From Eledone cirrhosa (lineage: Eukaryota), in the NCBI GenBank assembly GCA_964016885.1, contig OZ024746.1, positions 62,310,001 to 62,374,000 of the forward strand: 64,000 nucleotides of DNA, read 5' to 3'. Below, one piece after another: positions 32,219 through 64,000 of the stretch. The first letter of the stretch is position 1. Every line of letters starts with the position of its first letter. Made by a program: the position numbers and the translations under genes. A model generated the notes under the pieces. The model made no database searches, had not been told where the DNA came from, and was given only the letters and a program-made list of their open reading frames with translations.

Positions 32219-33449
32219 TCACGATACACTCTGGTGATTGATGGCAGTAGGCTCGGTCACTGAGACATTCTCCTGGTTAGCAGATAATCCCGATGTTAAG
32301 CTAGTCTCCTGGTTAGCAGATAATCCAGATGTTAAGGTAGTCTCCTGGTTAACGGAGAGACCAGATGCCGAGATATTATCCTGGTTAACGGAGAGTCCAG
32401 ATGCCGAGATATTCTCCTGGTTAATGGAAAGTTCAGATGCCGAGACACACCCCTGATTAGCAGAGGGTTCAGATGTTGATACATAAACCTGGCTGATGGC
32501 AGAGGGCTCAGATACTGAGACACTCTGCTGGTTAACAGACAATTCAGACACTGAATCGCACTGCTGGTTGGCAGAAGACTGAGACACAGAAATAGTTTGT
32601 TGGTTGGTGTTGGTGGTGGTAGAAGACTCAGACACCAAGACATTCCGTCGGTTTGTGGAAGAGGGCTGGGACACAGAAACATTATGTTGATTAGTAGAGG
32701 GCTCAAACACAGAGCTGCAAATCTCCGTCCATGTTCCTGAGCCATTCAATAATGTTGTATCTGGTGAAGCAATCATGGCAAATGTTGGTGCTTCAGTAGC
32801 TGGGGTTGGTGTGAGTGTAGTGTTTGTAGCAGCTGTCGTTGCAACTACTGCAACTGCAGCTGTTGTAGATGTTTTCGTTATCTGAGTTGTCTTGATCCCT
32901 GCCAGGTTCAAAAGTGCATCTGCACCCTCGGCAATTTTCTTCTTCTCATCTTCGTCAAGAATGGGCAACCGTTTCTTAGTGCGGTGTTGTCTATTGATGA
33001 ATTTGTCCCTGGCTTCATTAGCATTTTTATCGGACTGTGGAAAGAAAGAAAATTCCTTGGTGACAGTCTTTGTTGTTGCAGAGTCGATTGGGCTTGCCGT
33101 TGTCATGTTAACAACAGACGTAATAACTGATGAGTTTGCCGACACTGGTTCCTGTGATCCATCAGCCTGGTGTGGCTGATTCCCATTGTCCTCCTCACTG
33201 AAGCTCTCTTCTTCATCAAAATCACTATGATAGCTGTCAAAGTCACTGTAGGCTTCTTCATCGTCTTCACCTTCGTCTGGTTCAGGCCCAAAGTCATACT
33301 CATCGTCAATAGAAGAGCTCGATACATCATAACTGTCATCATCTGTTGCTTGAGTTGATGTGGCACTGTAGTTGTGGTCCTCACTCGGGCTGCTGGTACA
33401 CACAATTGGGCCAGCTTGCTTTTTGCGAACAGGACCATATGGAGCACCC
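32219..33449 (-). CDS. FOXN3: FoxN2/3 (FOXN3/CHES1-like) forkhead transcription factor, last coding exon
   Basis: Part of the 427-aa ORF. It contains PSEDHNYS (EDHNYS at 33382-33365), SSSSIDDEYDF and KIAEGADALLNLAGIK, which match, from memory, the FOXN3 C-terminal motifs EDHNYS, SSSSADDHYEF and EAAGSLLHLAGIR in the same order. Acceptor tctttttccag|G at 33450/33449 (phase 2); stop TGA at 32221-32219. Confidence 0.9.
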
Positions 33450-33704
33450 CTGGAAAAAGATTTCAAACCATTATTTAAAAAGTCATCATTATTATGAAGC
33501 AATGCTTTTATAAAACTTTCTTATATATATATAAATAACAGGATAAGAATATCCTAAACTATTTCCTTGAGAGTTAGGATGTCACAGATAAACAATTATT
33601 GGAAAGTAAAACAAGTGGTTATTGGTTCATTTCCTGTTACCAACAGTGTATTCTGTCTATGACCAAGCTTACCTTGTTCTAATTAGGTACCAGAGTGGTA
33701 TATT

Positions 33705-42858: not shown

Positions 42859-43001
42859 GAGTATATGTTGGTTGTATACCAACACCTCAGTATGCAGGCT
42901 GGAGCACTCGACGAAGTACGCAGGTTGGTTTGGTTACTCCAGAGTAATGTAAAATAAAGTAAAATAAAAAGTCAAATGTTTAAAATTTAGCTTCGTTTAT
43001 T

Positions 43002-43056
43002 ACTGCTATATATATTTCGGTGACAGCCATCTTTGGCTGTGACCTCTTCAGGCAGT
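43002..43056 (-). ncRNA. Minimal type I hammerhead ribozyme, family A (sense to FoxN2/3 pre-mRNA)
   Basis: Exact reverse complement of 43287-43341. Confidence 0.75.
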
Positions 43057-43286
43057 TTGAATTAGTATGGTATAGACAAGTACATATGTTGTTAAGGTGT
43101 ATGATATTGTCAATACTCTGATATGCCCAGTTCCTGGTTGGGTTGTTATTTCACTGAGGAACTGGAATCATATGATTCCAGTTCCTCAGAGAAATAACAA
43201 CCCAACCAAGAACTGGGCATATCAGAGTATTGACAAAATTATACACCTAAACAACATATGTACTTGTCTATACCATACTAATTCAA

Positions 43287-43341
43287 ACTGCCTGAAGAGG
43301 TCACAGCCAAAGATGGCTGTCACCGAAATATATATAGCAGT
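43287..43341 (+). ncRNA. Minimal type I hammerhead ribozyme, family A
   Basis: ACTGC-CTGAAGA-GGTCACAGCCA-AAGA-TGGCTGTCACC-GAAA-TATATA-TA-GCAGT: 5-bp stem I, CUGANGA core, stem II closed by G10.1-C11.1, GAAA, palindromic minimal stem III and a UA cleavage site. Confidence 0.8.
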
Positions 43342-43509
43342 AATAAACGAAGCTAAATTTATAAACATTTGACTTTTTATTTTACAGAGAGAGAGGAAAA
43401 GAGTCAGGACCCCGACAGCTGAGCTCAGCCTGATTCTTTTCCTATTACCCACTCTACTACCCTAAGTACTCTGATGTATTATGGTCCACCTGGTATCTTA
43501 CCACACCCT

Positions 43510-62491: not shown

Positions 62492-62872
62492 TCATCTAGG
62501 ACTCCAAAGACTAATCATGTTCAATAATATTGCCATCATTATTGACAGCACTGGTCCGCTAGTAAATAAATAAAACATATTTTGATATTGTAGTTCATAG
62601 TGTAAACAGATAATATATTCCACAAAATAGAACAGTTTTTGTGCAAAGAAAGGAGATTCTAACATTTTTATCAAAGATCTCCATTCACCATTGTCATTGT
62701 TTTTATGCCACCCCTTTGCTGCTTGTATGAGTTCAGGTGGGATATTTGTGATACGGTCTTCATGGCTGAATCCCCATCTTGATGCCAACCAACACTTCAT
62801 TTTAATTAGATAACATCAAAATCTCATAGATTCGATATTATGTGTTTACCATGAAAATACAATAGTATATAT

Positions 62873-63068
62873 ATAATTGTTTCTACTATTGGTACAAGGC
62901 CAGCAATTACCCCAGTGCATTACTGGCACTTTATTTTATCGATCATCCCATAAGGATGAAAGGCAAAGTTAACTTCGGCGGGATTTGAACTCAGATCATA
63001 AAGGGCCGTAACTCCATGCTGCAAAGCATGGCGTCCAACCCTCAATCGATACTGCCAATCCACCGCCC
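62873..63068 (-). mobile_element. Major-family SINE
   Basis: Near-consensus copy; a 5'-truncated copy with TSD CAATAGTTTATATAAT follows at about 63200-63308. Confidence 0.85.
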
Positions 63069-63123
63069 TAGTAAGGTACTCAATACATTAGTAGAGTGTA
63101 AAAGTCAAGTTTAATATAGAAAT

Positions 63124-63175
63124 GGCTTCTACAGGACTAGAACTGTTTCATTTAAAAGAAATCATCAGGAAAGCC
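63124..63175 (-). ncRNA. Candidate type I hammerhead ribozyme, family B
   Basis: GGCTTTC-CTGATGA-TTTCTTTTAAAT-GAAA-CAG-TTCTAGTC-CTG-TA-GAAGCC: complete core, stem III CAG/CTG, GUA cleavage triplet, stem I GGC(T)TTC/GAAGCC. Stem II is weak, with U.U at 10.1-11.1. Confidence 0.5.
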
Positions 63176-63816
63176 TGTATATGCAATAGTTTATATAATT
63201 GTTTCTACTTTTGGCACAAGGCCAGCAATTATCCCAGTGTATTACTGGTACTTTATTTTATCGACCCCGTAAGGATGAAAGGCAAAGTTAACCTCGGCGG
63301 GATTTGAACAATAGTTTATATAATGTGAATACTAAAGGGTTAATAATGAAAAGGTTGGTTATATAACAAAATCTATCCAAATTATTTGAAAATCATTAGC
63401 AGTGTCTATGGTAACAAAAGTACAGCTTTAAACAACAGCAACAAAAACTACAAAATAGTGAAACTGAACAAACAATAATTTAACAACAGCGCCAACAACA
63501 ACATTGAACAGTAACATAAACATTCCAATATAGTTTCACAAAATGAAACTGTCAAATGCCAGGATTGCCAATTTATTTTTAAATACCCATTATGACTAAC
63601 TTCAGTCATCACTTCAGCATTGATAGATTAAATACCAGTCATGCAATGGGGTGGGTGGATGAAGAGTACCATAAATTCAATTGTCTAGACAACACAACAT
63701 TATTTGTCCAAGTAAACAAATTTGCAAACTTGTGTAAATTAATAATGAAATTGCTTTCATATATGCCAACATGGATGGAACAACGGATATAAAACGGTGA
63801 TGATCATATAATTTCA

Positions 63817-63859
<43 letters not shown>

Positions 63860-63861
<2 letters not shown>

Positions 63862-64000
63862 AGTTTAATATAGAAATGGCTTCTACAGGACTAGAACTGT
63901 TTCATTCAAAAGAAACCATAAGGAAAAACCATCTTTCCTGATGATTTCTTTTGAATGAAAAAGTTCTAGTCCTGTAGAAGCCATTTCTATATTAAACTTG
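63860..64000. repeat. Fold-back palindrome of the hammerhead family B repeat (reaches the window end)
   Basis: CAAGTTTAATATAGAAATGGCTTCTACAGGACTAGAAC...GTTCTAGTCCTGTAGAAGCCATTTCTATATTAAACTTG; core CTGATGA at 63938-63944 and GAAA at 63957-63960; preceded by (TA)n. Confidence 0.9.

Follow-up and report, generated by a model that had tools for sequence, protein, structure and literature searches.

The window analysed here, i.e. the whole stretch of 64,000 nucleotides (G000:C6:62310001-62374000) of a 3.0 Gb animal assembly that was itself searched, contains one repeat with a hammerhead ribozyme motif, present as six arms at four loci, and an open frame that resembles part of a forkhead gene (table 1). 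The four loci (2259, 25250, 63124 and 63860) had been named in a preliminary description of the window, and all of them are present; what was overlooked is that two are inverted pairs, and that the repeat extends about 90 nt beyond the cleavage site. The window copies are short end pieces, tailed or tail-less, of a larger element, of whose ORF no piece was found anywhere in the window.

Table 1. Features of the window, with positions counted from its first nucleotide.
Positions	Strand	Feature	Length, identity or basis
2260..2309	+	tail-less fragment beginning inside the core, without CUG; then (TA)n	sequence
25179..25292	-	tailed arm of the second head-to-head pair; ribozyme 3' half only	114 nt, 81% identity to L058
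25286..25328	+	tail-less arm of the second pair; degraded 3' half only	sequence; hairpin z -7.7
32222..33520	-	open frame resembling the last coding exon of a FoxN2/3-type gene	ORF
63070..63175	-	element end piece; 5' end at the first base of stem I; tail shortened beside another repeat	106 nt, 94% identity to natural copy L058
63124..63175	-	type I hammerhead motif with full core, stem I, stem III and U10.1·U11.1; stem II weakened by one change	sequence and fold
63858..63939	-	tail-less arm of a head-to-head pair; core altered to CUUAUGG; (TA)n at its end	sequence
63933..64000	+	tailed partner arm of the 63860 pair; extends 75 nt beyond the window end	sequence

The presence of all core nucleotides together with stems I and III, claimed for the repeat at the outset, is true of the family and, locus by locus, of just one window arm in six, that at 63175-63124 on the minus strand, in which stem II carries one G-to-A change and cleavage is predicted between 63130 and 63129. 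The 63860 locus is a head-to-head palindrome with 67-nt arms that are 96% complementary; its plus-strand arm (63933) has CUGAUGA at 63938, is without the outer stem I strand, and has lost one stem III pair through a change of C15.2 to A. In the second palindrome (25179-25328) CUGAUGA and stem II are absent from both arms. Two copies of another abundant, SINE-like repeat (62870-63070 and 63192-63309) flank the 63175-63070 arm. The window also holds other hammerhead-like repeats, with a long stem II, at 3176 (-), 43051 (-), 43292 (+) and 43154 (+)/43189 (-), the region 42950-43400 resembling an inverted pair; that the two families are unrelated, as first stated, holds at the nucleotide level (best E 0.055).

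The open frame at 33520-32222 is presumably the last exon of a FoxN2/3-type gene, an assignment that we take from C-terminal motifs and from a forkhead exon (C6:62493733-62493948, minus strand; best PDB match FOXN3) lying 120 kb beyond the window. We infer that exon and open frame belong to one gene, and the 63175 copy would therefore be intronic and sense to the pre-mRNA, as had been suggested: the orientation agrees, and the rest follows if the gene is one. The same pre-mRNA would then have, 759 nt from the 63175 copy, a 97% complementary arm, which could mask it.

The hammerhead motif and its conservation

The elements CUGANGA, GAAA and UH occur in the order expected of a hammerhead, and three stems can form around the core on folding, with the ends of the motif in stem I, i.e. 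the type I anatomy that had been assigned to the repeat. A pattern of 32 core positions, in which 10.1, 11.1 and loop II were left free, matched 21,876 times across the genome and its reversed version, used as control, not once; the family is therefore not a chance occurrence. Ribozyme-bearing repeats are as abundant in this genome as the preliminary description had supposed. Within the window, CTGATGA alone is not enriched (5 matches against 10.5 expected), an Rfam scan returned no hammerhead model among 123 matches at E<=5 (MIR4208 and the other matches were far below their gathering scores and were set aside), and the predicted fold is no more stable than that of shuffled sequences (z -0.02), so that the evidence for the motif is comparative.

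Exact ribozyme 3' halves gave 7,605 matches in the window's subfamily and 17,490 in a younger sister subfamily. Stem I reads GGCUUUC/GAAGCC, GGCUUC/GAAGCC or AGAUUC/GAAUCU according to subfamily, both strands having changed with pairing kept, and these two-sided changes represent two or three events, not hundreds. No compensatory change was found in stems II and III between subfamilies, and loop II differs freely from copy to copy throughout the family, as the window copies had indicated. Patterns of the younger subfamily give about 2,100-2,500 forward matches in excess of reverse ones, behind which a large tandem array may lie; no such excess is seen in the older subfamily. At L164 (G000:C13:27326000-27335999) and L169 a further hammerhead family was met, in which stem III is minimal and palindromic and stem II is also closed by U·U; its tandem, retrozyme-like units lie about 470 and 420 nt apart, respectively.

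The Watson-Crick pair of hammerheads at 10.1-11.1 is missing and U·U takes its place, as had been read from the window: U·U is found in 97 of 100 among the matches listed (G-C in 0/100) and in all 77 core-intact arms of 113 unique arms from loci that were not selected on 10.1/11.1. To call this pair atypical was not justified, since U10.1·U11.1 is found, by our own count, in 14 of the 25 Hydra families of File S2 of Craig et al. 2021 (PMC8557442), and natural U10.1-U11.1 hammerheads, in which U-U supports more cleavage than other mispairs at this place, are in print (Perreault et al. 2011, PMC3088659). In the latter stem II opens with U-U as in the Eledone element, no tie to Penelope-like elements (PLEs) being given in the part of that paper available. 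The U·U pair is thus already known and ordinary for the Hydra clade.

New features of the element's hammerhead include loop III, which has 8 nt, whereas 1-3 nt are found in all 25 listed Hydra families; the start of stem III (ACAG...CUGU) is common to several of these, and the ribozyme of Hydra-1_Obim differs from that of the Eledone element (PMC8557442, as far as available). The central CUAG palindrome, in which a site for dimer pairing had been seen, is indeed there: predicted energies are -1.4 kcal/mol for the stem III hairpin and -12.8 for its self-duplex, and, therefore, monomer and dimer are both possible. In a younger copy the hammerhead fold (-5.3) lies close to the minimum (-5.6); with longer flanks the minimum-energy fold is not the hammerhead in two of three copies folded. 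An alternative cleavage register at the GUC of loop III was rejected, as neither subfamily has a fitting stem I strand before the core.

That the hammerhead really cleaves is a reasonable expectation from these comparisons, held with some reserve, and the ribozyme is probably slow or conditional, given its weak stem II, the U·U pair, and a possible need for dimerization or help from a protein. The best-surviving alternative, which we regard as unlikely, is that a Hydra PLE carries a hammerhead that no longer cleaves and has been kept to bind a protein or to mark a start. Since inserted copies run across the cleavage site, their templates must have been uncut or religated; ribozyme mutants of the green anole element inserted unchanged in vitro (PMC11167929, seen in part); stem II has just 3 bp besides the U·U, and the fold z-score near 0 would suit a dead motif as well. 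Against this, subfamilies that differ in loop II and stem I share the whole core and the U·U without change, and in the accessible part of PMC3088659 no other mismatch at this position is reported to be tolerated as well as U·U.

The carrier element

Walking 5' from the ribozyme leads from a 420-nt pLTR piece through a microsatellite to the degraded 3' half of an ORF on the same strand (L083, L123, L124), and walking 3' in L177 leads, in the window's subfamily, to the ORF start. The linkage to a PLE ORF proposed for checking is thereby found, and with it the suspected tie to Penelope; a non-autonomous or retrozyme-like carrier is at variance with an ORF linked on both sides. In order, the element comprises a pLTR (ribozyme, tail), the RT/GIY-YIG ORF, a short exon, a microsatellite-rich stretch of 2.1-3.9 kb and again a pLTR, often with an inverted truncated partner. 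Frames of 750-920 aa are intact in loci examined of the younger subfamily, whose copies are 95.7-99.7% identical, and the older-subfamily pLTRs have a mean identity of 84%; an older-subfamily ORF fragment is 75% identical to the younger-subfamily protein.

The younger-subfamily protein P0003 (713 aa) has a single RT plus GIY-YIG ORF, as PLEs do, with YRDD at 347 and YIG at 602; the RWK motif appears as RWR at 38, and DKT (at 116) stands for DKG, which is absent. CxCX5C at 566, CxxC..E at 666 and N..CxH at 685-696 follow, being also found in 116-118 of 120 relatives, while a pattern test detected no CCHH finger in the endonuclease of P0003 and the 120 relatives, there being no CxxC just before YIG. 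Relatives number 1,172, the top ones 38-53% identical. Pfam gave for P0003 only a sub-threshold GIY-YIG match (E 0.016) and none for RT, and nothing useful for the element fragments. The marks of the Hydra clade given in the accessible part of Craig et al. 2021 (PMC8557442) are RW[KR], DKT, CxCX5C, CxxC and CxH, with GIY-YIG after RT; this clade, Hydra-1_Obim included, and the Eledone element are alike in the motif set, the position of GIY-YIG, insertion into (TA)n, and a hammerhead near the 3' end. The preference for (TA)n had been noticed early and holds: 65 of 69 young arms and 58 of 95 old ones have a microsatellite (all dinucleotide types counted) directly behind their 3' end. The family also shows the PLE traits of partial pLTR tandems, an inverted 5'-truncated partner (within 400 nt in 15 of the first 30 genome matches) and an optional tail. 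Length is discordant: Hydra elements are generally below 3 kb, with consensi of 1.1-3.0 kb and a short 3' UTR (PMC8557442, in part), whereas the Eledone unit measures about 4.7-6.3 kb (ribozyme to ribozyme, 4.7 kb in L161 and 6.3 kb in L171), because of the putative intron described below.

On motifs and anatomy there is little doubt that the carrier is an autonomous Hydra-clade PLE. It is not a retrozyme, i.e. a set of non-coding tandem monomers without an ORF of their own: an ORF is linked, and the single tandem run is derived. In the portion available of a work on metazoan non-LTR retrozymes (Li, Clavereau and Pollet 2026, 10.64898/2026.07.22.740005), these share with PLE pLTRs a related type I hammerhead and, with the present family, the possible occurrence of tandem copies; they are non-coding tandem units, whereas the Eledone family encodes an ORF itself and occurs mostly as scattered copies. 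A first guess of the Neptune clade, from the Cys linker, was dropped on the CxCX5C spacing with DKT; Naiad was ruled out by the C-terminal endonuclease, a MITE or miRNA-like foldback by the unequal arms and fixed PLE ends of the palindromes, and a non-autonomous 420-nt unit, at first sight sharp-ended, by its 5' edge being an internal microsatellite.

Tandem copies, the search for which had been advised, occur as one run of 12 ribozyme-bearing pLTR units at C1:83.68 Mb (G000:C1:83679810-83691700; L281, L282), head-to-tail with a period of 1.03-1.11 kb and located behind an ORF copy; each tail end is succeeded by (TA)n and a portion of the microsatellite mosaic, as if the element had inserted into its own internal TA repeats or had been amplified in place. 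In L123 an apparently intact 1,204-aa endonuclease-RT frame (295-3906, L1/Tx1-like) adjoins the Hydra fragment. The word TGAGTACC occurs in L161 at 3834 (tail), 6157 (putative splice donor) and 6231 (70 nt inside the putative intron); the tail of published Hydra-2_Amil has a similar word, and a protein-binding signal is possible.

Copy ends, a candidate intron and the proposed mode of copying

Measured from the cleavage site, the 3' ends of copies are bimodal, falling at +20 to +29 in 30 of 96 old and 29 of 82 young arms and at +90 to +94 in 31 and 32, respectively; 13 further young arms read through into the ORF leader. Among 36 head-to-head pairs one arm is tailed in 29, none in 7 and both in 0 (P ~0.002 under independence), a pattern with which both window palindromes agree. 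For the 5' ends, 111 arms were sampled at loci drawn, in genome order, among matches to the ribozyme 3' half and chosen regardless of 5' sequence: 31 continue upstream, 44 stop 4-9 nt before C3, 2 stop at 10-19 nt, and 34 end closer, inside stem I or the core. In both subfamilies the modes correspond to the outer edge of stem I, 30 nt before which a TATA box (TATAAATA) is found, with CCAAT farther upstream. This pile-up, which marks the first stem I base and lies 30 nt downstream of the TATA box, is new here. The RNA likely starts at stem I from this CCAAT/TATA promoter, and we infer from the end positions that most copies would be run-off products of the 5' end of uncleaved RNA. Several copies that start there have, in a rough tally, an extra G before stem I, which could be a copied cap.

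A parallel is offered by PAc, a Poseidon element of the green anole (Frangieh et al. 2024, PMC11167929, accessible in part). Its tail is delimited, as proposed here, by two sites 3' of the hammerhead at which RT starts; both strands of AT-rich targets are cut, copying is mainly from uncleaved RNA and the ribozyme requires the protein, and internal RT start and uncleaved template accord with the run-off reading of the Eledone copies. The two elements differ in the tail, for which 30-40 nt is the published length and whose two ends are about 65 nt apart in Eledone, and in the ORF start, inside the ribozyme in PAc and about 135 nt after the cleavage site in Eledone.

Behind the ORF, 11 of 16 long loci contain 1.8-3.4 kb of TA/TG mosaic with a strand bias. 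Fifteen unique words are common to these mosaics, each copy having 7-15 of them and never out of order (rank correlation 1.0); the mosaic therefore travels with the element. At its 5' border stands GTGAGT, 85-86 nt after the stop codon, in the younger subfamily (e.g. L161 6068-6156, donor 86 nt after the stop) and GTAAGT in the older one; 2.1-3.9 kb on, a U-rich tract and CAG stand just before the core-proximal bases of stem I, an acceptor found in 11 of 14 copies, the other three being without one within the locus. Exactly this stretch is missing in 1 of 242 arms, and a genome search recovered 12 such intron-less arms at 9 loci on 6 contigs, all of the younger subfamily; none of the window's subfamily was found among the 242 arms examined. 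The intron-less arms are truncated at differing 5' positions, have normal tailed or tail-less ends with TA repeats behind them, fall into three loop II variants, and agree exactly with three different unspliced haplotypes; at three of the loci two intron-less arms form an inverted pair. An exact word across the unspliced junction has 5,238 genome matches, of which about 2,000 excess forward-strand matches may stem from arrays, so that the spliced share is about 0.2-0.4%.

The stretch, with the promoter that it holds, is very probably a GT-AG intron ending at stem I. Such a promoter-holding intron, read from rare spliced insertions, is new here and is the part worth follow-up. Instead of an intron, a single DNA deletion or template jump, later amplified, might have given rise to the stretch-less copies; just 12 such arms are known, from DNA alone and in one subfamily, and the 3' border coincides with the predicted RNA start, a possible landing site for a template jump. 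This we hold to be improbable, in view of borders that are exactly GT and AG, with GTGAGT, U-rich tract and CAG, a junction devoid of microhomology and located 1-2 nt inside the 5'-end pile-up position, and of the three exon haplotypes, three loop II variants and differing 5' truncations among the arms. On the reading as an intron, the spliced insertions imply a sense RNA template, at least for those copies, and, as a speculation, spliced read-through RNA might be a target of nonsense-mediated decay, given a donor 86 nt downstream of the stop codon.

No intron is mentioned for Hydra elements in the available text of Craig et al. 2021 (PMC8557442), in contrast with the likely intron of the Eledone element, and in the published literature searched (subscription papers and bioRxiv supplements fell outside the search) neither an intron nor microsatellite cargo is described in them. 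In Drosophila virilis Penelope, according to the parts available of Cervera and de la Pena 2014 (PMC4209133) and Schostak et al. 2008 (PMC2377424), a spliceosomal intron ends at the 5' end of helix I, like that proposed here, spliced and unspliced RNA contain different ribozymes, and the intron is kept in genomic copies. That intron has 75 bp and lies downstream of the start of an internal TATA-less promoter, whereas that of Eledone would be 2.1-3.9 kb long, mostly microsatellite, upstream of the predicted start, and would hold the TATA box.

Taken together, it is quite probable that the motif is the pLTR hammerhead of an autonomous Hydra-clade PLE, the window copies being end pieces copied from the 5' end of uncleaved RNA into TA repeats. 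The CCAAT/TATA promoter would start the RNA at stem I; the element's protein would nick (TA)n and begin copying at two downstream sites (~+25 and ~+90 from the cleavage site), often once per strand, and run-off at the RNA 5' end would yield stubs of 75-140 nt and lopsided palindromes. Long copies would derive from read-through RNA that retains the intron, and hence the promoter, spliced RNA being seldom copied, and the ribozyme would trim tandem transcripts or remove a capped leader. The view originally advanced, of a non-autonomous retrozyme or mini-element replicating via small circular RNAs, could appeal to the dominance of short non-coding pieces (the 3' halves counted above against 363 matches of one intron-internal word) and to the head-to-tail run of 12 units, and is most improbable given a coding ORF reached on both sides in both subfamilies, short copies that have, apart from the two 3' ends and the stem I start, no characteristic length, and a tandem run that comes after an ORF copy.

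PLEs are retroelements that retain introns for a reason called unknown in the accessible part of PMC8557442, and the choice between an antisense and an unspliced sense template was left open by Arkhipova et al. 2013 (PMC3846280, as available). The evidence tips slightly towards a joint reading in which the promoter would lie inside a 2-4 kb intron with its acceptor at the transcription start and stem I, splicing would remove the promoter and leave 4 of the 6 stem I pairs, the template would be sense RNA, with unspliced RNA favoured about 400-fold, and the layout of Drosophila Penelope would hint at a coupling between splicing and folding that spans clades.

In this genome a single young family has left both putatively spliced and unspliced insertions, which can be counted (12 versus 5,238), and the family carries kilobases of TA/TG repeat as inherited cargo. 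Loop III is long enough for monomer folding, which allows for comparison with the short-loop ribozymes of the Hydra clade. The likely large intron ending at the ribozyme would help to test why PLEs mostly copy unspliced RNA; if the proposal is true, the Eledone genome would be a natural record of Penelope intron retention, and the like layout in Drosophila Penelope would hint that splicing and ribozyme folding are coupled across clades.
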